A DNA stretch of 64,000 bases, taken from contig OZ241963.1 in assembly GCA_965204115.1 (NCBI GenBank), positions 532,622 to 596,621 of the forward strand, given 5' to 3'. Below are positions 21,989 to 46,309 of this stretch, one piece after another. This stretch comes from Minisyncoccota bacterium (GTDB lineage: Bacteria > Patescibacteriota > Minisyncoccia > Phycocordibacterales > JABAAK01). The translations under genes and the position numbers were made by a program. The notes beneath the pieces were generated by a model. It did not search any database and was not told the origin of the DNA. It was given only the letters and a program-made list of their open reading frames with translations. Positions within the stretch are counted from its first letter, which is position 1, and the number at the start of each line of letters is the position of its first letter.

Positions 21989-23863
21989 ATGCTTAATACA
22001 GAACAAAAAGAAGCAGTGCAGAAAAATGACTGTTCACTCCTGATTGTCGCGGGTGCCGGGACAGGGAAGACGCGTGTGTTGGTTGAGAAGGTCGCGCACT
22101 TGCTGCAACAGGGTGCCGCAGGTCATCGCATCCTTGCGCTTACCTTCACGAACAAGGCGGCGGATGAGATGCTTTCCCGAGTGCGGGAACGGCAGCCGTC
22201 CGTGTCTTTGCCGTTTGTCGGCACCTTCCATTCGTTTTGTGTTTCGCTGCTGCGTGAGTTTTATGCGGAGGCCTCCGTTTCGGAACGGTTTGTTATTTTT
22301 GATCGTGATGCTTGCCGTCGGATTTTGAAGCGGTGCATGAAGCAGGAAGGGGTCACTGATATAACGCCGAGGGTTATGCAGCAGGCAATCGGTCAGCTGA
22401 AGACCGGGCTCGGCTCTTCTGTGCAGGATGTCTCTGCTGTTGCTGCTGAGCGGGTGCTGCCGCTCTATACTCTCGCTTTGGAGCGGGAGCGTGCGCTTGA
22501 TTTTGATGATTTACTGCTGCGGGCGATCACGCTGCTACAGAAACAGCATACTGTTCGAGAGCAGGTGCAATCCCGCTATGCGTATATTTTAATTGATGAG
22601 TTTCAGGATACTGATGGTATACAAAACAGTTTGGTTTCTCTGCTGAAAGGGCCGCAAACCCGTCTCGTTGCTGTGGGAGATACCGATCAGACGATTTATT
22701 CGTGGCGCGGTGCCAGTATTCACACCATGCTCTCTTTTGCCGAGCAGTATGATCCGGTCGCCACTATTTTTCTTACCCAGAATTACCGATCAAGCGGTAC
22801 TATTCTCGCCGCTGCGAATGCGGTTATTGCTGAGAATGTGTTTCGTCAGGAGAAGGATTTGGTTGCAACGCGGGGTGATGGTGAGCGGATTACTCTGCTT
22901 TCGTCCGGTGACGGGGAGGATGAGGCGCTGACTATTGCGCGGACGATCACTGATTTACATACGCGCGGTACTCCGTATCAAGATATTGCTATTTTGTTTC
23001 GCGCTAATTTTCAGGCGCGGGCGCTTGAGTCACAGATGCTTGCGCAGCGGATACCGTATATGGTGCTTGGCACCCGGTTTTTTGAGCGGTCTGAGGTGAA
23101 AGATTTACTCGCCTACCTTGAGCTGGTGCAGAATCCGAATTCGCAGGAGGCGTTTGCCCGCGCTGCCGGTGTGCCGCGCCGCGGTATCGGCGCGCGGACA
23201 CTTGAGCGGGTTTTTTCCGGTGAAGAGCACCTGCTTTCCGCCGCCACCGCCTCACGGGTGGCGAATTTGCGTTCCTGTGTCAGGCATATTGCCGCACTTG
23301 CGGAGACACAGTCCGTAACGACCGTGCTGCAGGAGTTGTTGGTGGCGTTAGAGTATCAAAAGTATCTTGCCGCGACTTATGACAACCCGGATGAGCGGAT
23401 GCGGGAAGTTGGGGAACTGGTTTCTTTTGCTGATCGTTTCTCCCATCTTTCCGGCGCTGACGGCATTGCGCAGATGCTTGCTGAGGTCGCGCTGAGCAGT
23501 GAGCAGGACTCTCTGCGCGCGAATACGCGGGACCGTGTTCGGCTTATGACGGTACACGCGGCAAAGGGTTTGGAGTTTCCGTGTGTGTTTATTGCCGGTA
23601 TGGAGGAAGGGCTGTTTCCGTTTTTTCATGATGAGGATGGTGTGCGTGATGGTGAGGAGGAGCGACGGTTGTGCTATGTCGCGATGACTCGGGCGAAAGA
23701 TCGGCTGTATTGCTCGTATGCGGAGCGGCGCAATATTTTCGGCTCCTGGCGCAGTATGCGTCCATCTTCGTTTTTATCCGCTATTCCGGAGCACCTTGTG
23801 ACGGCGGTTGGCAGAATGACTGCCGCAGATGATGAGGCATCGGAAGAATCCATTGCGTGGTAG
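21989..23863 (+). CDS. uvrD: UvrD/PcrA/Rep-family SF1 DNA helicase
   Basis: MLNTEQKEAVQ...AGAGTGKT Walker A. DEFQDT, QNYRS and VHAAKGLEF motifs. Confidence 0.9.
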   Translation: MLNTEQKEAVQKNDCSLLIVAGAGTGKTRVLVEKVAHLLQQGAAGHRILALTFTNKAADEMLSRVRERQPSVSLPFVGTFHSFCVSLLREFYAEASVSERFVIFDRDACRRILKRCMKQEGVTDITPRVMQQAIGQLKTGLGSSVQDVSAVAAERVLPLYTLALERERALDFDDLLLRAITLLQKQHTVREQVQSRYAYILIDEFQDTDGIQNSLVSLLKGPQTRLVAVGDTDQTIYSWRGASIHTMLSFAEQYDPVATIFLTQNYRSSGTILAAANAVIAENVFRQEKDLVATRGDGERITLLSSGDGEDEALTIARTITDLHTRGTPYQDIAILFRANFQARALESQMLAQRIPYMVLGTRFFERSEVKDLLAYLELVQNPNSQEAFARAAGVPRRGIGARTLERVFSGEEHLLSAATASRVANLRSCVRHIAALAETQSVTTVLQELLVALEYQKYLAATYDNPDERMREVGELVSFADRFSHLSGADGIAQMLAEVALSSEQDSLRANTRDRVRLMTVHAAKGLEFPCVFIAGMEEGLFPFFHDEDGVRDGEEERRLCYVAMTRAKDRLYCSYAERRNIFGSWRSMRPSSFLSAIPEHLVTAVGRMTAADDEASEESIAW

Positions 23864-23897
23864 TGAAACCCGGTGTCTGTGTTATAGTAAGTATGTT

Positions 23898-30209: not shown

Positions 30210-33200
30210 ATGTTTTCTTTTAATGACCAGCGTGGCGGTTTTGCCACCATCGCCATTGTCGGGGGTGTTGCTGTTGCGGTTGTTGCCGGGGGTGTGTTTT
30301 ACTTTTTGCGCAGTAGCCCGCCTGAAGTTGATACTGTTTTGAAGGATGATTCGGCTACTGTTTTCGGTGAGGAGACCGTTTTGTCTGTTGATGCGGAGGA
30401 TGCGCTGCTTCGGAGTTTGCCTCGCGGGCGTACCAATGACTATTGCTCGTTACTCGGATTGGAGCGGGAGGCCTGTGCGGGTGGTGCCGAGGGTGTGTGC
30501 CGGGACTTGTTTGGCAGCTGTAGTATTGACGTCTCCCGTGACTCCTCTGACACTATTCGGCAGTTTGCCGAGGCCTGCTTGGTTTTGCGAACTGCGGAAG
30601 GGCGGTCGCAGTATTTTGCATGGCTTGATAGCGGTGATCCGAAGCCGTTTCCGCTTTATTACGCCATATTCGGACTGGAGGAAGGTGCGTTTAACCAGAA
30701 ACAACTCACTGATGCGTACCAGGTACTATTGGATTCATACTTTTCCACTGCTTCCTGCGACAATCGTGAGGCACTTCGTCTTTTGTCTGAGGGGTATCTT
30801 TTGCTGAGCGATGCTGCCGGTCGGTCTGAATACGATGTGTGGCTGAATGGCACCGGCAGTGATCCGTTTCCCTTATACTACGCGCTTCTTGGGCTGCGTA
30901 GAGACACTTTTACGCAACAAGATTCTGCTGATGCATACAAGAAAACCTTGGATCAATATCTTTCCGGATACTACGGCAACAATACTGAGGTCTTGCGCCT
31001 CTTGACCGAAGCGCATATGATATTGTACGATCCGTCATCGCAGTCCGCCTACAGCACACTTCTTGATGGCGGTCTGTCATCTTCTTTTTCCGATATTTCT
31101 CTTGATTTGGGTGGGGACAATCTGTTTTCTGCCCTCAGTGATCTTAACCTTTCACCCACTCATCTCGGTACTGTTTTCGGCTCCTTAGACCTGTCTTCTG
31201 CTGAGCTTGTAAGTGCTGCTGCCACGCTTGATTTCTCCTCCACTGATTTAGGCGGCTTTGTTGGCGGACTCAATCTTTCTCCGGGCAATCTCAGTGCCGT
31301 TCTGAGCGATTTTAGTATCTCTCCGGATAATCTTGGCGCTGCTCTTAACGGTCTTAATCCTTCCACTGATGACCTGAGTAACATTCTGAGTGACCTTGAT
31401 CTTTCTGCCGCTGAGCTGAGTATTGTTTTGAGTGACCTTGCTCTCCCCGCCGATGAGCTGAGTACCGTTCTGGGGGATCTTACTATACCTCCAACTGACC
31501 TGCAGACCTTATTTACCAATTTCGATATCCCTTTTCTTGGTGAGGGTACTCCGTTTCCCGGTGTTGCCGTGCCGCCCGATGATTTGCCGGATGATGCTGA
31601 TGATTTACCGGCGGTTGCTATTTCTCCGAAGCTTGTTCAGATTGGTGTTAAGAATGACGGTGTTCAGCCATCATTTCTCGTGGAGGTTACGAAAGGTGGT
31701 TCTCCGTACGCCCCTGATACGCCGATTACAGTTGCTCTGGAGTGTGAGGATGCCGTTCGTCCGGCTAGTCAGCCGACCACTTCTTTGATTTTAAGCGATT
31801 TGCCGGAATCTGTCCTGCTCTCTGCCAGCAAAGGTACGACCGGGGATTTAGTTCGAGCCCCTGGTGTTACCGGGTATGTTGTATGTGCTGTTGTTGCTGA
31901 CACTAATACAGATCCGACTTACATACTTGGCTCACCCTCCTCTGCAAGAGTTACTATTGTTGGAGGTTCGTCCGGTCCGCCTTGTGATAGGCCGTCGTGC
32001 CCCGGTGATCCGACCAGCGGTCCGTTGCCTACTGTTTCCATTGCCGCTGTTGAGCCGCGTGTTGCCAGCGGTGATGATGCGGTGTTTCGTGTTTCTTCCA
32101 GTTCCGATATTGTCGGGTCGTTGCATGTGCAGTATTCATGCAGTGCCAATACCAGTGTCGATAACACTTATCTCGGCGAGAATGATGTTACGATTCAGGG
32201 TGGTTCCGGGCAGTTTGCTACTACCATCACCCTGCCGACGAATGAGGATGTTTCTGATACCGTTACATGTGAACTACTTGATAGTGTAAAAAATGCGTAT
32301 AGGATTTTAGGTCGTGATGCTTCTGTCGGAGTCGGGTTGTTGGGATCAGGGGACATTGAAGGGTATGATCCTGCATTGCCGACCGTCTCCCTGATAGCGT
32401 ATCGCACGACACCGGGCAATTCTGGTAAGTTTTCAGAGAAGGTTAGCAGTACCGTTGTTGGTGATACGGACACTTATATTGGACTGGTGATTGATGACCC
32501 TGAATCAGATTCTTTTGGTGATGAGGATCCGGACTCCCGGAAGGAGGTTTCTGACGGTGAGTTGTATGTGCTGTATGTGACAGATTTTGGTAATACCATT
32601 TCTGTGCTGCCGGGCGATGGAGGGACTGTCACTGTTGGCATTAGTAAGGATAGGGAGGTTCCGGACTCGGAGCCGCTGTTTAATGCTGTCGCCGATACCG
32701 TTGTTGCCAAGCATTCAGGGTATGGGAGTCCTCCCACCGCTCTGCATCACAGTGCTGGGGGTGGTAGTCGTTGGAGAGGTAATTTTGCCGAGGGCAGTAT
32801 CTTTATTGAAATAACCGCAGATCATCGCGTTATTATGCGGAATGATGTCGAGGGAAATGTGATTGTTTGTGGCTATGATCGCGGTGTTCTGTATTGTGCG
32901 ACTTATGAGGATGCAGATAGATTTGCCCCGAGAAATATCTTTGTTACCGCGGAGTGTCGTAAAGAATTTTCGGATCGTGAGAGAAGTCGGGAGGACTCCG
33001 GTCTTATCACAGGCGGTCGGCGCGTGGTTGATCGCGGTAGTGAGCCGTCGTATGCGTTGCCGGTGTTCGGGTATGCTCCTGTTCGTCGCGGTGATCCCGA
33101 GGGTGACTTATACACCTTTATTCGTTCTGACGGGACTTACGATGCCCTTGATGAAGATGCAGGTCCTGATTCGGTGTTTAGTTCGATCCGTATCGATCCT

Positions 33201-36200
33201 TTTCTTGAGCCGGATACGACTTTTTCCTGTAGGATTTCCGGTGGCGGGGCAGAGGATGGGTATAATGTCGGCACTCCTTATGCGGAAGTGCAGGTGCGAC
33301 CGCGTGCGACGATATCTCTCGGTGTGCATGGTGCGCAGCGTGTTGCTGATGAGTCAGGGCTTCTCGGTGAGCCGGTTGCGCATCTTGATCGTCGTCAAGC
33401 GGAGTATAATTTTGATTCTGACAACTCTGACTTTTCTGATTTTCCCACCGGCCCAACCGGAGGTAGAGAGATTCCTGGTGTTGATGCATCGTTTCGTGAT
33501 GTGTCCGCCAGTTTAGGGGCGTCTCTTAGTGTTGGGTTTCTCACTTCTTTTGGTGCGTGTGCCGGTTCCTCTCTCTTGAATCGAGGAATCAGTGAGCTTG
33601 CTAATAGAATTGGTCTTGGCGGTTTTGGTGCTGTTCCGGTTAGATCTGCAAAACTTGAACTCAAGGAGTGTGTTTTGGATTCCGCTGTTTCCGGCGCTGT
33701 TTTGGAGGTGCTTACTGCTGTTGCGAGAGATTATATCACCTGGGCATCTGAGGGATTTGAGGACAAGCCGCTGTTTGTGAAGAATCCGACCACTTTTTAT
33801 AAGAACCTGCGCGATGATGCAATCGGTCGTGTTATTGATCGGAGTGGTCTTGGGTTTCTCTGCGATATCGGCGTTCCTAATTTTGAAGCGTACGAGGCAA
33901 CGCTTAAGATTAATTTGCAGCAGCAATATCTCGGCATCGCTACTGATCGACCGAGGTGTACCTATAGTGATTTGGCAAATAACCTTGAGGATTTTTATGA
34001 TGATGCTTCAGATGTTTTGCGTGATCTTGATCCGGAGTATTTGAGAAGCTTTGGTTTTACTATTGACGGCTCTGTCAGAACGCAGAACGCAGGCACTTTT
34101 CAGTTTCCGCCGTCTGATGGATTTACCGGCAATCAGCTTGATGCGTTCTCGGCGAACCTTGATCGCGCTATGAAGAAGACGGAGAATAGTAGTAATTTTC
34201 TCCTGGCTGTTTCCCAGGTGGATAGTGATATTCGCGAGGCGCGGCAGGAGTTTGATGCCGCTGTGAAGCCGGTTTCTCAGATTTTTAATCCGAATGACCC
34301 GACATCAATTGGTGCGTTTCGGGAGTGTAATGAGACAGAGAATCCGGAAGGTGATGTTGACTGTTTTTCATTGAATGTATCCGGTTCTAAGATTACTGAA
34401 ATGACCGGTAAGGGGATTAGCTCGCTTTCCGACCGATTGTTGCAGGTTGATGAGTTTGGGGAGTTTGGTCAGTTGGTTGGTCTGGCGGTGAACGCGACTT
34501 CTGCCGGCTTGATGAAGAAGTATTTAAGCAGGGGCTTTGGGCATTCAGTAGACAGAGAGACCGCGGATCTGTTGAGTAATATTGAAAAAGATATTGATGC
34601 CTCTCTCAGGCCGTCAAGTGCTCGTAAAGTTAGTTTGAGTGAGAACTGGTGGTCGGTGTTTTTTGAAAGAAACGCGTTTTATAATGACTTGCTGAATGCT
34701 GAGATGTATGCGAATGATGTCTTTACCTTATTGCAGTATATTGGGTCCGGTTTGTACCGGGATCCGAAGCGAATTGGTGATAAGGCATATATCCCTCCTG
34801 TCCGTCCTTATACCGCCTTTGATACTTTGCGCCATGCGAGTACGAGTGGTACACCAGGGCAATTTCCCATATTTTCGTATGGCAATTTGATTGGTTTTTC
34901 TTCCGCACAACTTACGAGGAATTATGCTAATTTTTATCACGCTCCAGATATTAAGAGTGCTGTTGAGGAGCGTGCTTTTGAGCAGCTTAATGGTAATAAT
35001 GGATGGGCGAAGGAGCGACTCCAGCATATTTTTAACGGCTGGGTCAGTGATGAATCCGGAGAGGAGCAAGGGTATCGAAAGATGGTGGCGATTGAGCGGT
35101 TTGATGATGCGCATCGTTTTTTGTCTAATGGTGAGGCGCGTTCAGCGTACAATGCTTTTCTCGGCAAGATGGGGGACTTTATTGAGAATACGCCGTATGA
35201 TCGGCAAGGCACGAGTAATTGGTGGAAGAAGAGTATGAAGAATATGCCAGACGATGTGAGAGAAGATATAGCCGGCCCTGGTCCTTCTTTGCCGGGACAT
35301 TTAGCAGGACTTAAGGATACAGATTCGCTCACCGACGATCAGAGTGTTCACTATCCCGAGGACCACACCGATTTTTCAAAACGTGTTTTCGGCGTCGGCT
35401 CTTCGGAGGAAAGGACTTGTGGTAATACACCCTGTGCTGATTGCCTGTTTCGTCGTTCAAGAGCGGCGTCAGGGAGTGCCGCGACGTGTACAACGGAAGG
35501 AGGAACAACATACCCTTGCATCAATGATATTGCGGGAAATATAGGACAGTGTATATATTTTAAGGGCGGTACTTCTGATCTTAGTGCTGGTGTTTGTGGT
35601 CTTTCGCTTACGGATCCGAGGTTTGAAACCCATTGCGGGGTCTGCTGGCCTCACAATCTCAATGGCAATACCGATCAAAATAAGTTTACTGCGTTTACGG
35701 GTGAGGTTGAGTACTATTGTCCTGCGGGAGGGACTTCCGAAAAGTTGCTGGATGCTCAGGGGGACCTTGTTACCATCAAACAATTGCGTAAGATTTACGA
35801 AGCAACATTGGCGGTGCATATTCGTTTAGTTGGAACGCTTGATGAGTATCGAGGCGCTCCACTGCTCAGCTCGCCTATTCATACTTACCGCAGAGAGATT
35901 TTGGATGCTTATCGGGCAGATCCTGATTCTGATGATCTTGATAGTGGCGGCGGGTGGGCAGTTGTGCAGCAGGAAACTTTAAAAAAGTTTCGTGACGGCA
36001 CAATGCAGGTGTATATTCCTCTTGACGATGACGAGTTTGGTGAGCAGGAGTATTTGACTCTTTTGAGTAGTGTTGGGTGTGTGAAAGCGGATGCGATTAC
36101 TTTTCAGGACGGTGCTTTTATCAGAAGTTATCAGGAGATGAGTTGTGTTTTAGGAACAGTTTTTCAGGATCAGGCGTACTTTGTACTTCGTCGAGAGAAT

Positions 36201-37031
36201 GATGATCTCAATAAGCGGCGTGTTGTGTATCTTGCTTGCGGGTATGATGATGATTCTGATGATGATTCTGTCGCTCCCGGCCAGCAGTCAGATGCAGACA
36301 AGCGTTTCCGGTTCAAGAAGGGCGTGGAAGGAAACCCAAGACCACTTCCGCCGGTGACCCTGGAGAAGGGGGAGGATTCGGTTATCTTTCCGGTGCCGAA
36401 ACCGATTTGGTCGCCGTTTGATCTTGGTGACCGCACTCCTTATAATAAGGATGACACTCCTCCTAACTACACTCCATTAACCGGTCAACGGATTCGTTGC
36501 TCTATAGATTTGAAGAGGACTCAGGTGAGTGCTGATGTTGCTGTGGATACGCTTACCCAAGTTGTCACTGTCTCGGAGCATCTGTCAAATGATGGTTCTC
36601 CCGTCACTTTTCACTCTCTGGTTCGGAATACTTTGGGGGGTATTGTTACCTCTCGTCTTGAGGATCGAAAGGATATGGTTGCTGAAGCACTGTTTTATAC
36701 CTATGTTTGGGGGTGGTATACCGGATTTATAGAGATGCCGTATTACTCTATTCAAGGACTGTTATCTAACCCGCCGGTAATTTTGACGGATAGCAAGGTG
36801 GCGGTGACGGCGAATATTCAGGGTAATCAGGAGGCGTTGCGACGGTATCGTTTTTTGAGTTCGCTGTTTGCCAATGAGAGTGATTCGCGGTTTTCGTCAA
36901 AAAACTTTGGTTTTCTTACTCCTGCTGAGGCGCGTGCTGAGTACGAGCATTCTTTTGACGATCGGTTTAATGGATATTTTGGACGCGCGCTCGGAGAATT
37001 TTTTGAGCTGCTCCCCAATATGCATCAGTAA
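30210..37031 (+). CDS. Giant (2273 aa) membrane-anchored surface protein. One N-terminal TM, three degenerate J-domain-like repeats lacking HPD, about nine 14-aa tandem repeats, then a large Cys-containing domain of unknown function
   Basis: Single uninterrupted 6.8-kb ORF. TM GFATIAIVGGVAVAVVAGGVFYF. J-like repeats PLYYALLGL...DAYKKTLDQY...LRLLTEAHMILYD span nt ~30432-31065. 14-aa period xxVLSDLxLSxxEL spans nt ~31092-31530. Confidence 0.75.
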   Translation: MFSFNDQRGGFATIAIVGGVAVAVVAGGVFYFLRSSPPEVDTVLKDDSATVFGEETVLSVDAEDALLRSLPRGRTNDYCSLLGLEREACAGGAEGVCRDLFGSCSIDVSRDSSDTIRQFAEACLVLRTAEGRSQYFAWLDSGDPKPFPLYYAIFGLEEGAFNQKQLTDAYQVLLDSYFSTASCDNREALRLLSEGYLLLSDAAGRSEYDVWLNGTGSDPFPLYYALLGLRRDTFTQQDSADAYKKTLDQYLSGYYGNNTEVLRLLTEAHMILYDPSSQSAYSTLLDGGLSSSFSDISLDLGGDNLFSALSDLNLSPTHLGTVFGSLDLSSAELVSAAATLDFSSTDLGGFVGGLNLSPGNLSAVLSDFSISPDNLGAALNGLNPSTDDLSNILSDLDLSAAELSIVLSDLALPADELSTVLGDLTIPPTDLQTLFTNFDIPFLGEGTPFPGVAVPPDDLPDDADDLPAVAISPKLVQIGVKNDGVQPSFLVEVTKGGSPYAPDTPITVALECEDAVRPASQPTTSLILSDLPESVLLSASKGTTGDLVRAPGVTGYVVCAVVADTNTDPTYILGSPSSARVTIVGGSSGPPCDRPSCPGDPTSGPLPTVSIAAVEPRVASGDDAVFRVSSSSDIVGSLHVQYSCSANTSVDNTYLGENDVTIQGGSGQFATTITLPTNEDVSDTVTCELLDSVKNAYRILGRDASVGVGLLGSGDIEGYDPALPTVSLIAYRTTPGNSGKFSEKVSSTVVGDTDTYIGLVIDDPESDSFGDEDPDSRKEVSDGELYVLYVTDFGNTISVLPGDGGTVTVGISKDREVPDSEPLFNAVADTVVAKHSGYGSPPTALHHSAGGGSRWRGNFAEGSIFIEITADHRVIMRNDVEGNVIVCGYDRGVLYCATYEDADRFAPRNIFVTAECRKEFSDRERSREDSGLITGGRRVVDRGSEPSYALPVFGYAPVRRGDPEGDLYTFIRSDGTYDALDEDAGPDSVFSSIRIDPFLEPDTTFSCRISGGGAEDGYNVGTPYAEVQVRPRATISLGVHGAQRVADESGLLGEPVAHLDRRQAEYNFDSDNSDFSDFPTGPTGGREIPGVDASFRDVSASLGASLSVGFLTSFGACAGSSLLNRGISELANRIGLGGFGAVPVRSAKLELKECVLDSAVSGAVLEVLTAVARDYITWASEGFEDKPLFVKNPTTFYKNLRDDAIGRVIDRSGLGFLCDIGVPNFEAYEATLKINLQQQYLGIATDRPRCTYSDLANNLEDFYDDASDVLRDLDPEYLRSFGFTIDGSVRTQNAGTFQFPPSDGFTGNQLDAFSANLDRAMKKTENSSNFLLAVSQVDSDIREARQEFDAAVKPVSQIFNPNDPTSIGAFRECNETENPEGDVDCFSLNVSGSKITEMTGKGISSLSDRLLQVDEFGEFGQLVGLAVNATSAGLMKKYLSRGFGHSVDRETADLLSNIEKDIDASLRPSSARKVSLSENWWSVFFERNAFYNDLLNAEMYANDVFTLLQYIGSGLYRDPKRIGDKAYIPPVRPYTAFDTLRHASTSGTPGQFPIFSYGNLIGFSSAQLTRNYANFYHAPDIKSAVEERAFEQLNGNNGWAKERLQHIFNGWVSDESGEEQGYRKMVAIERFDDAHRFLSNGEARSAYNAFLGKMGDFIENTPYDRQGTSNWWKKSMKNMPDDVREDIAGPGPSLPGHLAGLKDTDSLTDDQSVHYPEDHTDFSKRVFGVGSSEERTCGNTPCADCLFRRSRAASGSAATCTTEGGTTYPCINDIAGNIGQCIYFKGGTSDLSAGVCGLSLTDPRFETHCGVCWPHNLNGNTDQNKFTAFTGEVEYYCPAGGTSEKLLDAQGDLVTIKQLRKIYEATLAVHIRLVGTLDEYRGAPLLSSPIHTYRREILDAYRADPDSDDLDSGGGWAVVQQETLKKFRDGTMQVYIPLDDDEFGEQEYLTLLSSVGCVKADAITFQDGAFIRSYQEMSCVLGTVFQDQAYFVLRRENDDLNKRRVVYLACGYDDDSDDDSVAPGQQSDADKRFRFKKGVEGNPRPLPPVTLEKGEDSVIFPVPKPIWSPFDLGDRTPYNKDDTPPNYTPLTGQRIRCSIDLKRTQVSADVAVDTLTQVVTVSEHLSNDGSPVTFHSLVRNTLGGIVTSRLEDRKDMVAEALFYTYVWGWYTGFIEMPYYSIQGLLSNPPVILTDSKVAVTANIQGNQEALRRYRFLSSLFANESDSRFSSKNFGFLTPAEARAEYEHSFDDRFNGYFGRALGEFFELLPNMHQ

Positions 37032-37957: not shown

Positions 37958-40900
37958 GTGTATATGATGTTTGCTTTTATCAGGCGGCGGTGGGTTGTGT
38001 TCGGCACACTTTGTTTATTGTTGCTGTGTTTGGTTTTTGTGCCGCAGTTTGTGTTTGCTAATGTTGCTGATGGAATTACCAGCGTTATTAATGCCGTGGT
38101 CGGAGGTTTGATGAAGGGGCTTGAGTGGCTGGTCTCGCTGTTTCAATTCTTGTTTTTGCAGGTTATTCAATTTACCATTCTTGATTTTGCAAATCACTGG
38201 AAGGATAAGGGACTTCTTTCTGATTTTCGGGTGGTGTGGCAGGTCCTGCGGGATTTTGTGAACCTGTCCATTGTTGTGCTTTTCGTTCTTACCGCCATGA
38301 TGACTGTTCTTGACGCGAAAGGGCAATTCGGCTTTCACCGGAAGGGGTTGTTGTATTTGATTGCTGCTGCTGTTTTTGTGAATTTCAGTGCTTTCTTTAC
38401 TTTGCTTGTTATTGATGTTTCGCATATTCTGTTTATGTTGTTTTTTAATGCACTTGATGTGTCAACATTAGGATCGTTCTCGCCGTTCTCCGGGTATAGT
38501 GAGGTTTTGGGTAGTACTGCTGATGGCATTTTCAACATCATTCTCGGCGTTATTGCGATTGTGGTGAATTGGTTTATCATACTCGGCATTCTCTATTTCT
38601 GTATCATGTTGATTGAGCGGTATATTATTGCCATGTTTCTTGTACTTTTTTCGCCGTTCGCGGCACTCGGGTTTTTTACCAACATGTCCGGCGGTGGTAA
38701 CCCTCTTGCCGACAAGTTTTCCGGTGTGTATAAGATATGGAGTGAGCGGCTTGGCTATGTGTTCACCATGCCGGTCATACTTATCGTTGGGTTTGCGCTT
38801 CTGTTGGTTTTGTTCCGCGGGGCGTTGGGTCAGATGGTTGATCCTGATAACTTTGTTAAGTTGATTGGTGTTAACACTCCGGAGGGGCGGGGTATTCTCC
38901 TGCAGCTTATGCTTGCGAGCGTTGTGTTGATACTTGGCATTTTCAAGGTCGGTGAGTTTGCGAAGAATGCGAATATTCATCCCGCTATTGCTAATAAGTT
39001 TAAGTTTGGGGAACTGGCGTCCAAGCTGGTTCCAAAAGCGTCATCTGCTCCGAAAGCGGTACTTGGTGCTGTTCGGTCGATTAAGAACCCTGCCGGTCGG
39101 GGTGTCTTTGGTTATAAGCAAAAGATCTATGATCAGCGGAAGGAGTGGCAGCAGGCGCAGGATAGGGGGGAGAAGACGCCTTGGATCGCAAAGGTGCCCG
39201 GCGTCGGGAAGTCGCTTGATGTGGGGGGTAAAGTGCGGCGAGGCAGGCAGCGTGCTCAATCTATTGTTCGCGGCGCTCAGGTAGTTGCGGGCGGGCAGTC
39301 AGGTCGTAATGTTGACTGGCAGAATGCTGAGGCAAATGAGGACGCGAGAATCTGGGACATCATTCGTAACCCCACCAGCACTAGAGAGCAAAAGGAAGAT
39401 CTTTTGACGCAGGCGCTTGATGATAAGAGCAATGTTACGCTTAATGAGCAGCAGACCGCTGAGCTTGCGAGGAACATTGAGTTGCACCCACTGATTTCAT
39501 CATTGAAGAAGGGGGTTTCTCAGGGTACTTTCAGGCAGATACGAGGGGATGCGGAAGTACGGGCAAAGGAGCTTGCTGTTGAGAAGGATGCTATTGCCGC
39601 TGAGAAGGGCACCCCTCCTCCTGAGTATGAGAAGAGACAGCAGGAGCTTCACACTGCTGAGATAGATTATAAGGGCGCAGAGCTGGCGTATGATGATTTG
39701 ATGCGGCAAAAAAATTTTGCACAGGATGAGTTTAATGCCGCGAAGGAGGCATTTGAACAGACGGATGCGTATAAGAAGTTTAATCGAGATCTTGACAGTA
39801 AAATGCAGGACTTTGAGTCCGGCAAGATAGCTTGGGAGGATGTTGAAAATTTTGAGACCACTTTTTATGAGGATGCTGCAACTCGAACGCAAGCCGGTTC
39901 TGTCCGGCAGCAGAAGCTTGCTGTATTGGAGAAGATGAAGGATTCATTGCGTACGGCAAAAGATACAAAGAAGTCCGCGGACAATGTACAGCAGGGTGCC
40001 AAGAAAGCCTTTGAGGTTGAGGAGAGCAAGCATTATAATGCTATACGGCAAAAGGAAGACGCTAATACCAGTGCGCGAGGGGTGGTTACGCAGACATTTT
40101 CTAACCTTGCGACGAATACTGCCGCAGGTACCTCTGTTTCAAGAAATGCAGCAGCGGTGTTTGACCCTGATGCATTGAAGGATGCGCGTGCGGAGCGGGA
40201 GTCCGTTGCTGCTCCTATTGATAAGCAATTTCAGAATATGAAAAATGATTATGCGAAGTCGTCCGCAGTCGCTTTGGAGGACCTTAAGGCAGAAGAGAAA
40301 ACTATTGCGGAGAAAAACGCTGAGGAGAATGCGGATCTTCTTGAGAAGCGGGAGGAGTATGCTGATGAGGAGATGCAGAATCCTAACCCCAATGTTCTTA
40401 CGAGTCGCATGTTTGAGCTTCAGGAGGAGATTGATGCTTTGGAGCAGGAGTCCGCCGCGCGTCGTGAGCGATCTTTGGCGATTAATGCGGAGAGAGGTCG
40501 TATTAGGTCTATCAGAAAAAATCTTGAGAAGCAGGATGTTTCTGATTCTGAGAAGCTTGCCGTTCTTGGTGAATCTGTCAAGAGTGCGAAGTCATTTGTG
40601 CAGGGTGGGACGCAGTATCTTACTGCTCAGCTGAAGGCTGTTGATGATAAAATGACTGCGCTTGAATCTGTGGCGAAGCAGCGGGGTACTGATGTGAATA
40701 GCAATAGTGAGTACACAGATCTGCGGGATGAGCAAGAGCGCATCACCAATCGTATTGGGTATATCGGTCGTGTCGGTGGCAGTATTGCGGAGGTGGGTGA
40801 GGCCTTAGATGAGCAGAAGGAGATCCTTGAGAGTCCGGAATATACCGACGCTCTTGGTCAGGAACAGTATCTCTCGCTGTTCAGTGTGAAGACCTTACTG

Positions 40901-41188
40901 CGTGATATTGAGTCGGCTCTGGAAAGGCGTAAGAAGGCCTTTACTGAGAAGGAAGAGAAGAAGCTGGCGAAGAAGATGAAAGAGCAAGGGAAGAAGGGCG
41001 CTCCGAAGGTTCCGAAGAACGCTCATAAGGAGGATCCTGAGTGGAAGGTTCTTGACCAGCAGAAGAAGAATCTCAAGAAGATACAGGCGGAAGGTGGTGC
41101 CTCTGCTGAGCTGCAGCAGGCGGCCGTTAAGGCGGCAGAGCAGCTGGCAAAGCAGCAAGCGCAGAAGAAAAAACAGAAACAAAAATAG
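37958..41188 (+). CDS. VirB6/TrbL-like polytopic membrane protein with a long K/E-rich coiled-coil C-terminal extension (1076 aa)
   Basis: N-terminal signal-like helix, then at least six TM helices over about 330 aa, then about 700 aa of charged coiled coil. Sits immediately upstream of the VirB3/VirB4-like genes. Confidence 0.6.
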   Translation: MYMMFAFIRRRWVVFGTLCLLLLCLVFVPQFVFANVADGITSVINAVVGGLMKGLEWLVSLFQFLFLQVIQFTILDFANHWKDKGLLSDFRVVWQVLRDFVNLSIVVLFVLTAMMTVLDAKGQFGFHRKGLLYLIAAAVFVNFSAFFTLLVIDVSHILFMLFFNALDVSTLGSFSPFSGYSEVLGSTADGIFNIILGVIAIVVNWFIILGILYFCIMLIERYIIAMFLVLFSPFAALGFFTNMSGGGNPLADKFSGVYKIWSERLGYVFTMPVILIVGFALLLVLFRGALGQMVDPDNFVKLIGVNTPEGRGILLQLMLASVVLILGIFKVGEFAKNANIHPAIANKFKFGELASKLVPKASSAPKAVLGAVRSIKNPAGRGVFGYKQKIYDQRKEWQQAQDRGEKTPWIAKVPGVGKSLDVGGKVRRGRQRAQSIVRGAQVVAGGQSGRNVDWQNAEANEDARIWDIIRNPTSTREQKEDLLTQALDDKSNVTLNEQQTAELARNIELHPLISSLKKGVSQGTFRQIRGDAEVRAKELAVEKDAIAAEKGTPPPEYEKRQQELHTAEIDYKGAELAYDDLMRQKNFAQDEFNAAKEAFEQTDAYKKFNRDLDSKMQDFESGKIAWEDVENFETTFYEDAATRTQAGSVRQQKLAVLEKMKDSLRTAKDTKKSADNVQQGAKKAFEVEESKHYNAIRQKEDANTSARGVVTQTFSNLATNTAAGTSVSRNAAAVFDPDALKDARAERESVAAPIDKQFQNMKNDYAKSSAVALEDLKAEEKTIAEKNAEENADLLEKREEYADEEMQNPNPNVLTSRMFELQEEIDALEQESAARRERSLAINAERGRIRSIRKNLEKQDVSDSEKLAVLGESVKSAKSFVQGGTQYLTAQLKAVDDKMTALESVAKQRGTDVNSNSEYTDLRDEQERITNRIGYIGRVGGSIAEVGEALDEQKEILESPEYTDALGQEQYLSLFSVKTLLRDIESALERRKKAFTEKEEKKLAKKMKEQGKKGAPKVPKNAHKEDPEWKVLDQQKKNLKKIQAEGGASAELQQAAVKAAEQLAKQQAQKKKQKQK

Positions 41189-41201: not shown

Positions 41202-41230
41202 TTGACAGTATATATTTTTTATGGTATAAT
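41202..41230 (+). promoter_or_regulatory. Consensus sigma70 promoter: TTGACA, 17-nt spacer, TATAAT
   Basis: -35 TTGACA at 41202..41207, exact 17-nt spacer, -10 TATAAT at 41225..41230. Confidence 0.55.
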
Positions 41231-41236
41231 TATATT

Positions 41237-41440
41237 GGACTTCAATAGTCCCTGTCCTGCCGTGCGGTCAGTTTACTGACCACAAAAATGGACATACTGA
41301 AGTTCTTTAAAAGTGACCTTCCTTATTAGTGCCCGCAAGGGGTAGCTGCTTCGGCGGCATGGGAGGTCCATAACTATCTGATAGAGTTACGCTTGCCCAA
41401 CCGGTTTCCATAAGACTGGTTGGGCATTTGTTATTTTTAT
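41237..41440 (+). ncRNA. Structured leader or small RNA of about 200 nt between the consensus promoter and an intrinsic terminator, immediately upstream of the VirB3/VirB4-like genes (candidate attenuator, riboswitch or sRNA)
   Basis: Four hairpins: GGACT-tcaat-AGTCC, GGTCAG-TTTA-CTGACC, CCC-GCAA-GGG (GNRA tetraloop) and GCTGC-UUCG-GCGGC (UUCG tetraloop). Terminator GCCCAACCGGT/ACTGGTTGGGC at 41395..41425 followed by ATTTGTTATTTTTAT. No ORF inside. Confidence 0.4.
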
Positions 41441-41458: not shown

Positions 41459-41914
41459 ATGCGCTTTCAGGTTCCGCAAAATTTAGATGTGCCGGATACT
41501 ATTCTTTTGGGTTTGGATTTTAGGCAGCTGATTTACCTTGGTGGTGCTGCCGGACTTTTGGTGTTTTTGTTTCTGTTTTTTGGTATTTTGCCGACGGTCT
41601 TTATTGGTGGTCCGGTTGCTATTCTTGCGGGTTTTTTGTCGTTTTTTACCTATAATAACCAGAAGTTTGTCACGCTTTTTCAATCGTTGATACGGTTTTT
41701 TTCCCGGAAGAAGATGTATGTGTGGCGGCGTGGTACTATTGACGCAGCAGTGCGGCGCACAGCTAAGGAGGATGACTCCGTTGACGGGGAATTTGTGCAC
41801 CCGGACTCTTATTCGCAACGACAGCGGCTGGATAAGGTTCGTGAAGTGAGTGCCAATCTTGTTTTTTCTGATGATGGGGGTGACTCGTATGATGAGCTTG
41901 ATATTGTTCTATGA
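41459..41914 (+). CDS. VirB3/PrgI-like small 2-TM protein of T4SS-type systems
   Basis: About 150 aa with a two-TM hairpin (LIYLGGAAGLLVFLFLFFGILPTVFIGGPVAILAGFLSFFTY), directly before the VirB4 ATPase. Start chosen at the ATG downstream of the terminator; track start 41420 overlaps the terminator. Confidence 0.55.
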   Translation: MRFQVPQNLDVPDTILLGLDFRQLIYLGGAAGLLVFLFLFFGILPTVFIGGPVAILAGFLSFFTYNNQKFVTLFQSLIRFFSRKKMYVWRRGTIDAAVRRTAKEDDSVDGEFVHPDSYSQRQRLDKVREVSANLVFSDDGGDSYDELDIVL

Positions 41915-42531
41915 CTGCAAACACCACCACACAATCATTTGTTCCTTTGAAGGATATTCAAAATGGTATTGTTACCCGGGATGACGGTGTTTTGTGTGCC
42001 GTGTTGTTGGTTTCGTCTGTCAATTTTAACCTGAAGTCGGAAGATGAGCGGCAGGCCATTCTCTATCAGTTTCAATCTATCTTGAATTCGCTTGAGGTCG
42101 GTGTTCAGATTATTGTCCAGTCGCGACGGCTCAATATTAAGCCCTATCTGCAGTACCTTGAGGAGGTGTATGAAAAACAGACCATTGAATTGTTGCGTTT
42201 GCAGACGCGGGAGTATATTAACTTTATTTCTGATTTTACGGAGCGCAATGAGATTATGACAAAACAGTTTTTTGTTGTTGTTTCGTATTCCCCTGTTTCG
42301 TCCGGCGGTCTTGCCGGCGGACTGCCTTTTTTAGGCAAGAAGGAGGCGACATCGGAGCAAAAAATGACCGAGGAGCATGTTACGCAGTTGCTGCAGCGAG
42401 TTTCTTTTATCCAGAATAATATACGGGCATTAGGATTGCGAGCGGTGCAGCTCGGTACTGAGGAGGTGACTGAGTTGCTGTACAAGACCTTCAATCCGGG
42501 TGATACGCAGACGCCTCCTCCTGCAACTTAA
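41911..42531 (+). CDS. VirB4/TrbE/CagE-like ATPase, N-terminal domain fragment (206 aa) of a split gene
   Basis: VPLKDIQNGIVTRDDGVLCAVLLVSSVNFNLKSEDERQAILYQFQSILNSL matches the N-terminal CagE_TrbE_VirB region of Gram-positive-type VirB4 (PrgJ/TcpF-like). ATGA overlap with the upstream gene. Confidence 0.7.
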   Translation: MTANTTTQSFVPLKDIQNGIVTRDDGVLCAVLLVSSVNFNLKSEDERQAILYQFQSILNSLEVGVQIIVQSRRLNIKPYLQYLEEVYEKQTIELLRLQTREYINFISDFTERNEIMTKQFFVVVSYSPVSSGGLAGGLPFLGKKEATSEQKMTEEHVTQLLQRVSFIQNNIRALGLRAVQLGTEEVTELLYKTFNPGDTQTPPPAT

Positions 42532-42580
42532 TACATTTGTTTTGCCTCCGTGATGTTTATCTGGTGTATTATATTGGTAT

Positions 42581-44413
42581 ATGGGTATTTTTGATGCGTT
42601 TGGTGGCAAGAAGCAGGGGGATTCCTCAGTGCGTGCTGTTACTGAGGAGGATTTTATTCCTGAAGCTGCGTTCAGTCCGGCAACTATCGGCTTGCGGGAT
42701 GTTATCGCGCCGCCGGCTATACAAATAACTTCACGACATGTTGCTTTAGGGAGTAAGTTCGCCCGATCTTTTGCGGTGGTGTCATACCCGCGGTTTTTGA
42801 ACGAAGGATGGTTTTCTCCGGTTATTAACTTGAGCAAGGAATTTGATATCGCCATCTTTGTGCATCCGATGAATTCAAAAGATGTGTTGCGGAAGTTTCG
42901 GCGAAAAGTGGCGCAGGTTGAGAGTCAGATTATTGAACGGGAGAGCAAGGGGATGGTGCGTGATCCGAAGCTTGATACCGCACACCAAGATCTTGAGGAT
43001 TTGCGTATGAATATTCAGCAGGCGACTGAGCGGATGTTTGAGGTTGGGGTGTACATCACTATTTACGGTGAGACGGTTGAGGAAATCAATGAAGTTGAGA
43101 AAGATATGCGGTCGCTGCTCGAAGGGAAACTTATTTTTGTGAAGCCGACTGTCTTTCAGCAGGAGCAGGGGTTTCGGAGCACAAGCCCGTTCGGCACTGA
43201 TTTGCTTTCTATTCACACAAAGCTGAACTCTGAGCCGTTGTCAAGCTTGTTTCCGTTTATCTCTTTTGATTTGTCCGCTGAGAAGGGGATACTGTACGGT
43301 ATCAATCAGCACAATGCCTCACTTATTCTGTTTGACCGTTTTTCTCTGCCGAACTATAACTCAGTCACCTTCGCGACCTCCGGTGCAGGGAAGTCGTACG
43401 CCATGAAGCTTGAGGTGCTGCGATCGTTGATGGTCGGTGTTGATGTTATCGTGATAGACCCGGAGCGGGAGTTTGAGCGATTAGCGCAGGCAACGGGCGG
43501 TCGTTACTTTAATGTTTCATTGAATTCGGAACACCATGTTAATCCGTTTGATTTGCCACCGGTCGGTGAGGATGAGAATCCGTCCGATGTATTGCGCAGC
43601 ACGGTTATTAACCTTGTCGGTTTTTTTCGGGTGCTGCTCGGCGATTTGTCGCAGGAGGAAGAGTCAATTATTGATCACGCGATTCGTGAAACATATGCAT
43701 TGAAGGACATCACGATGGAAGGGGGTTTTGAGCATATTGATCCTCCGCTTATTTCTGACTTTGCGCTTGTGCTCGCGGGAATTGAGGGCGGTGAGCAGCT
43801 TGCTGAGCGACTCAGTCGGTATACAACCGGTTCGTGGGCCGGATTTTTGAATCAGCCGACCAACATTGATATCGGTCGGCGGTTTGTTGTTTTTTCTATA
43901 CGGGATATGGAGGATGATTTGAAGACCGCTGCTATGTATATCATTACGCGGTTTATTTGGAATAATATTCGGAAAAAATTGAAGAAGCGGCTGTTAGTGG
44001 TTGATGAGGCGTGGATTATGATGCAGTCGGGCGACACCGCTTCTTTTTTGTTCGGTTTGGTAAAACGCGGTCGGAAGTATTACCTCGGTGTGGGTACTAT
44101 TACGCAGGATGTCGGAGATTTTTTGCGGTCGGATTATGGTAAGCCGATATTGAATAACTCTTCTTTGATTTTGCTGTTGCGGCAGTCGGCGACTTCCATT
44201 GACCTGGTGCAGCAGACCTTTAACCTGACTGACAGTGAGAAGTACCTCCTCCTTGAGGCAGCGGTCGGTGAAGGGCTTTTTATTGCCGGTTTGAAGCGGG
44301 TTGCTATAAAAATCATCGCCTCTTTCACTGAGGATAAAATTATTACCACCGATCCGTCTCAGCTCCTTAATCAGCAGCGGGTTGTGCAGCAGCAGCCACT
44401 TGATGCGGTATGA
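42581..44413 (+). CDS. virB4: VirB4/TrbE-like T4SS ATPase, C-terminal ATPase part (610 aa)
   Basis: Walker A FATSGAGKSYAMK, Walker B LLVVDEAW. The TcpF/PrgJ-like middle region IAPPAIQITSRHVALGSKFARSFAVVSYPRF is also present. Confidence 0.9.
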   Translation: MGIFDAFGGKKQGDSSVRAVTEEDFIPEAAFSPATIGLRDVIAPPAIQITSRHVALGSKFARSFAVVSYPRFLNEGWFSPVINLSKEFDIAIFVHPMNSKDVLRKFRRKVAQVESQIIERESKGMVRDPKLDTAHQDLEDLRMNIQQATERMFEVGVYITIYGETVEEINEVEKDMRSLLEGKLIFVKPTVFQQEQGFRSTSPFGTDLLSIHTKLNSEPLSSLFPFISFDLSAEKGILYGINQHNASLILFDRFSLPNYNSVTFATSGAGKSYAMKLEVLRSLMVGVDVIVIDPEREFERLAQATGGRYFNVSLNSEHHVNPFDLPPVGEDENPSDVLRSTVINLVGFFRVLLGDLSQEEESIIDHAIRETYALKDITMEGGFEHIDPPLISDFALVLAGIEGGEQLAERLSRYTTGSWAGFLNQPTNIDIGRRFVVFSIRDMEDDLKTAAMYIITRFIWNNIRKKLKKRLLVVDEAWIMMQSGDTASFLFGLVKRGRKYYLGVGTITQDVGDFLRSDYGKPILNNSSLILLLRQSATSIDLVQQTFNLTDSEKYLLLEAAVGEGLFIAGLKRVAIKIIASFTEDKIITTDPSQLLNQQRVVQQQPLDAV

Positions 44414-44916
44414 GTATAGAGAACACAGCAAAATCTTTCGGGGCGGCATTTGCCTTTACCGGTGTGGCATGGCTTTCTGAGGTGATCAGTGGAGCATTGG
44501 GTTCTCTGCAGAGCTCTTCCGTTACCTTTCTTCTTGATGGCGGCATCACCGTCGGTATCCTGGCAATTACTGCCGGTCTTGTTGATTTTTTTCTCGGCAC
44601 TGATATTATTGCGACAGCTGCTGGGATTCTCGCGGTTTTTTTCGGTCTTCAAGCGTTTGTTTCTTTGCTGACGCTGTGTGTTTTTTATGCTATTGTTCGC
44701 ATGTCTCCGAAAGGCACCTACACGCTTCTTGATTGCATCATTGCTGCCGGTGTTTGCCTGCTTGAGGCGTTGCCATTTGTCTCCACTTTTGTTTTTTGGG
44801 GGATGTTTGCAGCTTACTTACGGCGACAGCAGATTTCACAGGTTGCTTCGATACTTCCTCAGACGCGTGCGTTTGGTGTTGTGGCAAAAGGTGTTCAGGC
44901 GTTGGGGAAGTCGTAA
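44410..44916 (+). CDS. Integral membrane protein (168 aa, about four TM) translationally coupled to virB4
   Basis: ATGA overlap with the virB4 stop. Hydrophobic; no known domain. Confidence 0.6.
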   Translation: MSIENTAKSFGAAFAFTGVAWLSEVISGALGSLQSSSVTFLLDGGITVGILAITAGLVDFFLGTDIIATAAGILAVFFGLQAFVSLLTLCVFYAIVRMSPKGTYTLLDCIIAAGVCLLEALPFVSTFVFWGMFAAYLRRQQISQVASILPQTRAFGVVAKGVQALGKS

Positions 44917-44975: not shown

Positions 44976-45710
44976 TTATTCCCCCTTTTTGTTACTTTGG
45001 AGGATGTTTGCTACATAACTTTCCAGTTGGGCAGTGGTGAGGGAGCCGACGCTTTCAAAGAGCAGTTCGCCGTTACCGGAGATGAATTGGATGTAGGGTG
45101 TTTCGTCAATATTGAGTTCACGGACATCCTGTATTGCTTGTAGTGTTTGGGGAGCAATCTCTCTTCCTTCTTTTCTGCATTGCTCAACTTTGTCAAAAGG
45201 GATGTTGAGGCGTTTCATCAGCATTTTGTAGCGGTCGTTGGGGTACTCAATTTCCATTACGCCGCCGATGAGGGACTCCTCTATGAATTTCCATGCGGTT
45301 ATGCGTGCTTGTTCGCCGGCATGGAGACGGATGCATTCAAGTGTTTGTGCTTTTTTGACGGAGGTTTCGTTGATGTGAAACCCATTTCTCCACACCCATG
45401 CCACTCTGCCGGACACCCCCCAGTCGCTTTTGATGAGTGTCTTTGCATGCGGGTGAAATTCTTTGCAGTACGGACATTCCAGATCGCCGTACTCCACGAT
45501 GAAGAGGTCTGCTTTCGGATTGCCGAATATGAGATCAATTTTTTTGTTTACTGGCCTGAAGTAGCGGTCATCACGGGTGTCTATCATCACTTCTACGGCG
45601 TTGCTATGCTGTACAAGAAGTACGGCACTCACGAGCAGGGCGATTGTGATGATGAGCACATCAACAGCGATTTTGTATCCACCTCTCTTTTGTGCTTGTG
45701 TTGCTTCCAT
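44976..45710 (-). CDS. DsbA-like thiol:disulfide oxidoreductase (thioredoxin fold), membrane-anchored
   Basis: CPYC active site (DLECPYCKEF). N-terminal TM anchor. Start at the internal ATG (MEATQ...). Confidence 0.8.
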   Translation of the reverse strand: MEATQAQKRGGYKIAVDVLIITIALLVSAVLLVQHSNAVEVMIDTRDDRYFRPVNKKIDLIFGNPKADLFIVEYGDLECPYCKEFHPHAKTLIKSDWGVSGRVAWVWRNGFHINETSVKKAQTLECIRLHAGEQARITAWKFIEESLIGGVMEIEYPNDRYKMLMKRLNIPFDKVEQCRKEGREIAPQTLQAIQDVRELNIDETPYIQFISGNGELLFESVGSLTTAQLESYVANILQSNKKGE

Positions 45711-45733
45711 ACAGTGTTCATTATATCGTGAAA

Positions 45734-46309
45734 CTAGAATAAGCTGACGGATGCATCTTCCACATTCTCTTCTCTTTTCCACTGTGAGGTGTCTATCGGT
45801 ATGGTGTGTATTGATCCGAGGTCGTTGTACAGGAGCTCCTCATTTTTCAGCGCGTAATCAAAGATGTCTTTTGTGATACGCACATCATCAATGCAGTACT
45901 GTTTCACCTCTTCAACCTTTCCTTGCTTCCACCATTCCACTGCCTGCAGTCCGTCGCCGCTTTTATTGATGCCGAGTGTTCCTTCGGCGATCCAGTCAAG
46001 GCGTATTCGTCTGCCGAGTGATTGACGGACACTTTCCAGGAGGTCAATGCTGTCGTACTCTTTTGTTAAATCCATCGGTGCGTATTTGTTCAGCAGAGGG
46101 GTGTCAAAATGGTTGTTGTTGAATCCGATGAGTGTGTCAATGTTGCGCATCACTTCCCAGAGATCCGGCAGTGTTTCCTGTGTGTATGCGGTGTATGCGT
46201 CGTCGGTGTAGCTGTATACCGCGATGACGGCGAGTGTAAGGTCCTCGGGGTTGCGTTTCTCGTTGTTAAACACATCTGAGGTTTCTATGTCAAAAACAAG
46301 TCCTTTCAT
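45734..46309 (-). CDS. DEDD-family 3'-5' exonuclease (RNase T/DnaQ-like)
   Basis: FDIETS Exo I motif. Later HFD and D motifs. Confidence 0.7.
   Translation of the reverse strand: MKGLVFDIETSDVFNNEKRNPEDLTLAVIAVYSYTDDAYTAYTQETLPDLWEVMRNIDTLIGFNNNHFDTPLLNKYAPMDLTKEYDSIDLLESVRQSLGRRIRLDWIAEGTLGINKSGDGLQAVEWWKQGKVEEVKQYCIDDVRITKDIFDYALKNEELLYNDLGSIHTIPIDTSQWKREENVEDASVSLF

Follow-up and report, generated by a model that had tools for sequence, protein, structure and literature searches.

How should a virB4 gene that occupies two reading frames be read: as a damaged gene, as an artefact of assembly, or as two genes? The question is raised by a 64,000-nt stretch of contig OZ241963.1 (Minisyncoccota bacterium, GenBank assembly GCA_965204115.1), hereafter the window, in whose coordinates all positions are given. 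On its forward strand lie genes of a type IV secretion system (T4SS), among which the VirB4 ATPase is encoded by two adjacent open reading frames (ORFs), designated here ORF1 and ORF2. We consider it very probable that these represent a genuine and conserved arrangement of two genes, TrsD-like and VirB4. The locus is the core of a chromosomal T4SS typical of Patescibacteria, and a virB4 in two genes is already known as the published norm for this phylum, functional, and neither damage nor a novelty.

Reading frames and gene order

The ORFs were listed mechanically with their translations, and the central part of the locus comprises the following features.

41459..41914, + strand: PrgI-family (VirB3-like) small membrane protein (Pfam PF12666 PrgI, E 1.1e-07, 32.8 bits against a cut-off of 27)
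41911..42531, + strand: ORF1, 206-aa soluble TrsD-like or 'TraC-like' protein, ATG start, TAA stop at 42529-42531
42532..42580, no strand: ORF1-ORF2 spacer of 49 nt, containing a TGA (42551-42553) that closes the ORF2 frame upstream
42581..44413, + strand: ORF2, 610-aa VirB4-family ATPase without the first N-terminal subdomain, ATG start

The two ORFs start in different frames (41911 mod 3 = 1, 42581 mod 3 = 2), and a stop scan of positions 42500-42600 found TAA 42529 in the frame of ORF1, TGA 42551 in that of ORF2 and TGA 42501 in the third. As the ORF2 frame is open only from 42554, past the ORF1 stop, a single indel cannot join the two, and at least two would be needed. A previous reading made from the letters of the window (the sequence-only reading) had given the same lengths of 206 and 610 aa, the same stops and the same start at 42581 in another frame, and had held that one indel could not fuse the pair; on these points it agrees with the sequence, the ORF list and the stop scan.

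The gene ahead of ORF1 was called mechanically from a TTG at 41420, and its probable start is the ATG at 41459 (MRFQVPQNLD...). In a hydropathy scan its product displayed one long hydrophobic stretch (residues 34-78), and its stop overlaps the start of ORF1 as ATGA (41911-41914). The 49-nt spacer yielded neither a promoter-like nor a terminator-like call. By eye, within 30 nt upstream of the starts at 42581 (ORF2), 37958, 30210, 48548 and 49725, we noted a TATAnT-like box ending approximately 1-12 nt ahead of the start and no obvious Shine-Dalgarno sequence. Such boxes, seen by eye in the sequence, could mean that the transcripts have little or no leader, and that ORF2 possibly has a start of its own.

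ORF1 and ORF2 as consecutive parts of VirB4

ORF2 exceeds the cut-off of the curated model NCBIfam NF045971 (CD1110-family VirB4; 345.9 bits against 325, E 4.5e-103), matching profile positions 184-734 of 752. Its matches to the TIGR00929, TraC-F-type and Mbov_0397 VirB4 models are strong but lie below the full-length cut-offs, as is expected because the N-terminal segment is missing. Pfam matches are P-loop_TraG, AAA_10 and DUF87; the crystallised C-terminal domain of VirB4 (PDB 4AG5) matches residues 246-585 (E 8e-42), and a comparison with PDB sequences aligned residues 116-557 to residues 286-736 of R388 TrwK (E 1e-06). The Walker A motif GAGKS (residues 268-272, nt 43382-43396) and the Walker B motif VVDEAW (residues 473-478, nt 43997-44014) are intact, and both fall in invariant columns of a 63-sequence alignment. 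A complete N-terminal domain is not present on the same polypeptide: ORF2 begins at position 184 of 752, 293 of 894 or 237 of 792 of the respective profiles, and the VirB4 N-terminal segment missing from it is encoded by ORF1.

ORF1 has no match in the local Pfam-A library. Its NCBIfam matches are the N-terminal ends of three full-length VirB4 families (positions 101-234 of 894, 5-119 of 752 and 19-183 of 792) and the stand-alone TrsD/TraD family NF041427 (E 6.4e-06). Furthermore, precomputed annotation gives PF26593.2 ('TraC-like') for the database protein identical to ORF1 (P0001) and for all 120 homologues listed; models for the small protein or its relatives already exist in NCBIfam (TrsD/TraD family) and Pfam (TraC-like).

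Alignment to full-length VirB4, a check that the sequence-only reading had proposed, places the two ORFs consecutively on the profiles (5-119 followed by 184-734 of 752; 101-234 by 293-893 of 894; 19-183 by 237-726 of 792). Judged by these alignments, ORF1 and ORF2 are complements, colinear and without overlap on full-length VirB4, and not duplicates. As ORF2 residues 1-245 precede the part aligned to the 4AG5 construct, the break lies inside the N-terminal half of VirB4 and not at the boundary of the ATPase domain. ORF1 is the equivalent of the first N-terminal subdomain of VirB4. The earlier partition into an N-domain and an ATPase is thus right in that ORF2 carries the ATPase, but residues 1-245 of ORF2 still belong to the VirB4 N-terminal half. 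Similarly, what had been called the 'N-terminal CagE/TrbE region' does correspond to an N-terminal part of VirB4; it is, however, not the Pfam CagE_TrbE_VirB domain but the segment N-terminal to that domain, which the precomputed annotation assigns to PF26593.

An AlphaFold2 model of ORF1, built from an 86-sequence alignment, had a mean pLDDT of 83.6. Its 14 best Foldseek matches in the PDB were all chains of R388 TrwK/VirB4 (E 6.5e-4 to 1e-2, probability 1.00, 177-201 aligned columns), and the matches after them fell to a probability of 0.25 or less. A search of PDB sequences with the ORF1 alignment profile gave nothing meaningful (best E 0.29), TrwK being recovered by fold comparison only. 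On the model, ORF1 is predicted to fold like the VirB4 N-terminus.

The possibility that ORF1 is a paralogue of the N-terminal part of ORF2, arisen by internal duplication, was considered and dropped, as hhalign found no similarity between the two alignments. The N-terminal strand motifs of ORF1 (TQSFVPLKDIQNG..., 41926-42027) and ORF2 (LRDVIAPPAIQITS..., 42686-42790) are alike, a weak secondary BLAST match (E 0.21) links ORF1 residues 6-39 to the segment of a Vescimonas fusion protein (see below) that ORF2 residues 36-70 match, and the order of strands and helices is similar in the ORF1 and ORF2 models. A tandem duplication of ancient date inside the N-terminal domain of VirB4 may account for the likeness of the motifs, but the profile-profile comparison does not support it.

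Conservation of the two-gene arrangement

In a scan of one genome per species, at least 572 genomes were found to encode a relative of ORF1, and 80 loci from different species were retrieved for comparison. A search of a 90%-clustered protein collection (E <= 1e-3) returned 1,048 ORF1 homologues; the 120 listed, with identities down to 49%, are all 174-224 aa long, and the ORF2 homologues listed measure 581-704 aa (120 at 64-99% identity). The closest relatives are labelled Candidatus Kaiserbacteria or Paceibacterota, and several loci under the labels Paceibacterota or Kaiserbacteria have an ORF1 homologue adjoining virB4. Since the named organisms among the 120 ORF2 homologues belong almost all to lineages of Patescibacteria, the VirB4 sequence itself very likely falls in the Patescibacteria clade.

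All 80 loci contain an ORF1 homologue with its own stop, followed on the same strand by an ATPase gene with its own ATG, and a PrgI homologue stands directly upstream of the ORF1 homologue in 77-79 of them. The small gene adjoins virB4 in every locus examined; relatives without the N-terminal segment, which the sequence-only reading had envisaged, were not encountered. The spacer between the two genes, measurable in 78 loci, has a median of 5 nt and a range from -4 to 538 nt, occurs in all three relative frames and is conserved neither in length, nor in frame, nor in sequence.

Viewed locally, with two frames and the stops TAA 42529 and TGA 42551, the locus could be taken for a decaying pseudogene, i.e. 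a once continuous virB4 that acquired at least two lesions (a stop and a frameshift) in this genome, and multiple lesions were one of the two explanations offered by the sequence-only reading. We regard the chance of this as negligible: the same two-gene state, with varying spacers and frames, recurs in all 80 species, and more than 1,000 stand-alone homologues of approximately 200 aa exist. Against the closest locus (L001), dN/dS was 0.068 for ORF1 and 0.040 for ORF2 at a dS of approximately 1; both genes are under strong purifying selection. Moreover, conservation extends through the C-terminus of ORF1 as far as its stop and through the N-terminus of ORF2 from its start onward, the Walker motifs are intact and ORF2 scores above a curated VirB4-family cut-off. 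In the ORF1 alignment (86 homologues with identities down to 47%), 20 columns are invariant and 45 nearly so. An almost invariant C-terminal motif, T-E-E-x-x-E-L-x-Y-x-x-F-N-P-G, ends approximately 10 residues before the stop, and its FNPG is invariant at some 10 aa ahead of the stop of the ORF1 homologue in all 80 loci.

Another explanation is an artificial break, made by a sequencing or assembly error in a metagenome-assembled genome (MAG). The relatives are indeed all MAGs and the source is evidently metagenome-derived, but independent assemblies from many studies and technologies, including OZ244939 and OZ253947 ('genome assembly, chromosome: 1'), agree on where the protein is broken, no fewer than two errors would be required, and the references from cultured plasmids, pSK41 and B. 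cereus pJ7_3, have the same layout. An error of this kind is scarcely credible.

Programmed recoding, by which frameshifting, stop read-through or bypassing would join the ORFs into one full-length VirB4, might be suspected from their adjacency and from the one relative (P0319) that encodes a continuous protein of 797 aa. It is, in our view, extremely improbable: the TGA closes the ORF2 frame after the ORF1 stop, so that two recoding events would be needed; the relatives have spacers of any frame, between -4 and 538 nt long, in which no sequence is conserved; a whole gene lies in between in five loci; and ORF2 homologues align from their own first ATG. Comparative evidence thus excludes the pseudogene, the assembly error and programmed recoding alike. 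The other explanation of the sequence-only reading, a genuinely split gene, is borne out by the two-gene state in 80 of 80 species, by the separate stops and starts and by the dN/dS values.

The gene found between the TrsD-like gene and virB4 in five loci encodes an unrelated protein of 114-134 aa with the motifs VWQK and SNIAEG.

L005, 5683-6027: intervening gene
L012, 4351-4752: intervening gene
L028, 5671-6075: intervening gene
L070, 5662-6024: intervening gene
L071, 5741-6112: intervening gene

By these motifs, its product appears to resemble the four-helix-bundle or 23S rRNA intervening-sequence proteins. Its occurrence suggests a small mobile gene that repeatedly landed in, or was retained at, the TrsD-like/virB4 junction. 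In a further locus (L061, 5663-9508), the VirB4 homologue is 1282 aa long, with an insert of approximately 670 aa right behind the Walker A motif GAGKS. The insert has ...VHN|S at its end and the look of an intein within the P-loop, big enough for a homing endonuclease.

Natural fusions and longer forms of the small protein

A search of 1.84 billion proteins with ORF1 gave 3,777 matches at E <= 1e-3, of which the best 150 cluster representatives were sized: 110 measured up to 260 aa, 39 had 261-450 aa and one, the sole fused form among them, had 797 aa. The latter (P0319; L087, 544-2937), from a patescibacterial MAG, is an in-frame fusion of a TrsD-like protein and VirB4, in which the ORF1 profile matches residues 4-214 and ORF2 residues 38-596 match residues 230-789 with 54% identity. 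Its gene is flanked by a PrgI gene on one side and a gene for a 163-aa protein on the other, with dnaA approximately 2.4 kb away. A 942-aa protein of a Vescimonas plasmid likewise combines a PrgI-annotated N-terminus with an ORF1-like part (132-247) and an ORF2-like part (333-925). Fusions with the same order of pieces suggest, by 'Rosetta stone' reasoning, that the pieces act together.

The main rival to such joint action holds that the small protein, a mere descendant of an N-terminal piece of VirB4, works on its own in an accessory or regulatory role, for example as an adaptor to other partners or in assembly control, and does not complete the ATPase. Several observations would fit it. TrsD has no assigned function, and TrsD homologues of Gracilibacteria do not adjoin virB4, according to Quiñonero-Coronel et al. 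(2025; Microb Genom 11:001409, PMC12102498); the TrsD-virB4 link is therefore not universal. The Firmicutes versions of the small protein have 300-318 aa, and about a quarter of the best 150 representatives (the 39 of 261-450 aa) bear 100-230 extra C-terminal residues, which hints at functions beyond completing VirB4; the tails of the two longer proteins inspected are of low complexity. What argues against an independent factor is that the segment missing from the ATPase partner is in each case precisely the one provided by the small protein, that fusions in the expected order exist, and that the small gene shows tight synteny and probable translational coupling with the gene of a VirB3-like protein, a known membrane partner of VirB4. 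On balance we consider this alternative unlikely.

The two-gene reading, with a small protein that completes VirB4, has to bear the long tails and the unlinked Gracilibacteria genes, and further points weigh against it as well. The match of ORF1 to NF041427 (TrsD/TraD) is weak (26.1 bits, short of the cut-off of 200), as is that to pSK41 TrsD by hhalign (E 0.0014, probability 17%); from these scores, ORF1 appears to be a remote relative of TrsD/TraD, outside the strict family membership of NCBI. The ORF2 model (pLDDT 62) was too poor for inspection of a docking surface and was used for neither fold nor interface.

Proposed mechanism and its significance

We propose that the VirB4 motor would be assembled from two polypeptides whose adjacent genes are translated independently, as in the staphylococcal plasmids pGO1/pSK41: the soluble TrsD-like protein of approximately 200 aa would be the first N-terminal subdomain, and the protein of approximately 600 aa would provide the rest of the N-terminal domain and the RecA-like ATPase domain. 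PrgI, ORF1 and ORF2 are plausibly transcribed together, and PrgI and ORF1 would be translationally coupled via the ATGA overlap, which would keep the amounts of the small protein and of the VirB3-like protein matched. The small protein would then bind the ATPase subunit non-covalently and in trans, which would restore the full N-terminal domain of VirB4. In R388, the N-terminal part of VirB4 contacts VirB3 and membrane components; the hexameric motor could in this way be anchored to the membrane channel. Completion in trans, taken by itself, seems to us somewhat more probable than not, with considerably less assurance than the two-gene arrangement.

A more far-reaching and quite doubtful proposal is that the fission of VirB4 at this point is ancient, common to pGO1-type plasmids, several Firmicutes plasmids and nearly all Patescibacteria, and has been kept since a detachable N-terminal subdomain serves as a control point. 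If so, the small protein, synthesised in parallel with VirB3, would license hexamer assembly or membrane docking of the ATPase, or would permit a swap of partners. The split would then serve regulation in a T4SS indispensable to the epibiotic lifestyle, and would not be a neutral fission.

For annotation, the consequence is that the pair should not be called a frameshifted virB4 pseudogene, as the T4SS would otherwise be wrongly scored as defective in thousands of genomes of Patescibacteria. As to biology, the sole genetically tractable patescibacterium cannot grow epibiotically without its T4SS: the T4SS cluster of Ca. Southlakia epibionticum ML1 was found to be essential for such growth (Wang et al. 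2023, PMC10633639).

Other genes and features of the window

Around the PrgI/TrsD-like/VirB4 row, the following features were recorded.

37958..41188, + strand: gene of a 1076-aa protein with approximately 8-10 hydrophobic segments in residues 7-336 (hydropathy scan) and a large C-terminal part
41202..41230, + strand: promoter-like site with a perfect sigma-70 consensus (TTGACA, 17-nt spacer, TG-TATAAT; 12 of 12 matches, extended -10), a consensus match only
44410..44916, + strand: gene of a 168-aa polytopic membrane protein, its ATG overlapping the ORF2 stop (44410-44413)

Pfam and NCBIfam scans gave no match for the 1076-aa protein. Of the 80 related loci, 58 encode a homologue upstream in the same orientation, and from its position and topology the protein is a candidate VirB6-like channel subunit. 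The gene of the 168-aa protein, likewise without a family match in Pfam and NCBIfam scans, probably belongs to the same operon as ORF2; homologues in the same position were detectable only in the three closest of the 80 loci (L001-L003), and a gene of similar size comes after virB4 in the locus of the 797-aa fusion.

The putative sigma-70 site is located upstream of the row. Between it and a strong terminator-like hairpin (a 14-bp stem at 41394-41426 followed by a T-rich tail) there are approximately 200 nt without an ORF (region 41202-41440, + strand), with a predicted fold of -80.2 kcal/mol (z = -5.6 against shuffles). This region matched no Rfam family, and a comparison with the 80 related loci brought up no DNA resembling it; in the closest relative (L001), the equivalent spacer has only 27 nt. 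The ORF-free region upstream of PrgI could encode a small RNA, or it could serve the T4SS operon as an attenuating leader.

Further upstream, the window encodes a 2273-aa protein (30210-37031, + strand) with an N-terminal hydrophobic segment and no family match except a weak one to DnaJ, and a 1314-aa protein (23829-27773, + strand) with FG-GAP repeats and peptidoglycan-binding domains. Both may be surface or adhesion proteins tied to an epibiotic lifestyle. Among the flanking ORFs scanned (18.7-52.5 kb) are the housekeeping genes for RecG, UvrD, KsgA, HisRS, GluRS and MurG, the rest being without family match, and these flanks indicate that the T4SS is chromosomal. The ORFs scanned at 18.7-52.5 kb, which are part of those in the window, gave no match to a relaxase or a VirD4 coupling protein.

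Comparison with known systems

In the S. aureus plasmids pSK41/pGO1 (MPF_FATA, pGO1 subclass), trsC (135 aa, VirB3-like) is followed by trsD (227 aa; annotated 'TrsD/TraD family' in pSK41) and by trsE, which encodes a DUF87/VirB4 ATPase of 672 aa, an order equal to PrgI-ORF1-ORF2. Residue 40 of ORF2 aligns with residue 36 of TrsE, and the break point is therefore common to the window and pSK41. ORF1 is only remotely similar to pSK41 TrsD, and pSK41/pGO1 represent plasmid-borne conjugation with a relaxase and a coupling protein, whereas the system of the window is chromosomal, with neither of the two among the ORFs scanned.

Full-length VirB4 proteins (R388 TrwK, PDB 7O41/8RTB; the CD1110 and Mbov_0397 families) have the same fold and the same order of segments as ORF1 and ORF2 together, but on one polypeptide, and VirB3-VirB4 fusions exist, for example in Vescimonas pMM35_02 (WP_212822118), whereas the window has three separate genes.

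The same order, PrgI, a TraC-family or hypothetical protein and DUF87, is seen in the Firmicutes plasmids Geobacillus pGspE55-1, C. perfringens pJFP838A, Terribacillus pDMT04 and B. cereus pJ7_3. Their small proteins share 22-30% identity with ORF1 over 55-97% of its length; they have 210-318 aa, are usually longer than ORF1 (300-318 aa), and their hosts are ordinary Gram-positive bacteria. In two of these plasmids a thiol-disulfide oxidoreductase (TlpA or thioredoxin-like) lies nearby, as it does in the window. The window gene (44976-45782, - strand) encodes a thioredoxin-like, TlpA-type enzyme with an N-terminal membrane anchor and adjoins the T4SS genes; the same type adjoins the row of PrgI, TrsD-like and VirB4 genes in the plasmids of Geobacillus and C. 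perfringens (L081, 2577-3206; L082, 1-214). The association of this oxidoreductase with the T4SS may be conserved.

The closest published counterpart is the TrsD and VirB4 pair of Patescibacteria. TrsD goes unmentioned in the main text of Guglielmini et al. (2014). According to PMC12102498, where TrsD is defined by the CONJScan MPF_FATA profile, it is the most abundant T4SS component in Patescibacteria, with 2,272 homologues in 2,221 assemblies (1,664 of them associated with virB4), and is called a remote homologue of the VirB4 N-terminal portion; the Ca. Southlakia epibionticum ML1 homologue is given there as essential, and KsgA is among the genes frequent near virB4. The expectation of the sequence-only reading that a split VirB4 would be unusual does not hold against that account and the annotation of pSK41, by which it is standard across Patescibacteria and the pGO1/pSK41 class of Gram-positive conjugation systems.

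The window likewise has PrgI/VirB3, TrsD-like and VirB4 genes in this order on a chromosome, among housekeeping genes that include ksgA, and compared with that study there is no substantial difference: it is one more instance. The present analysis makes explicit, as that account seemingly does not, that the patescibacterial VirB4 is without its N-terminal portion, in complementarity with the small protein and with a common break point. This is an incremental refinement, in which explicit complementarity, a break point in common with pSK41 TrsD/TrsE and rare natural fusions lead to a testable hypothesis of completion in trans.

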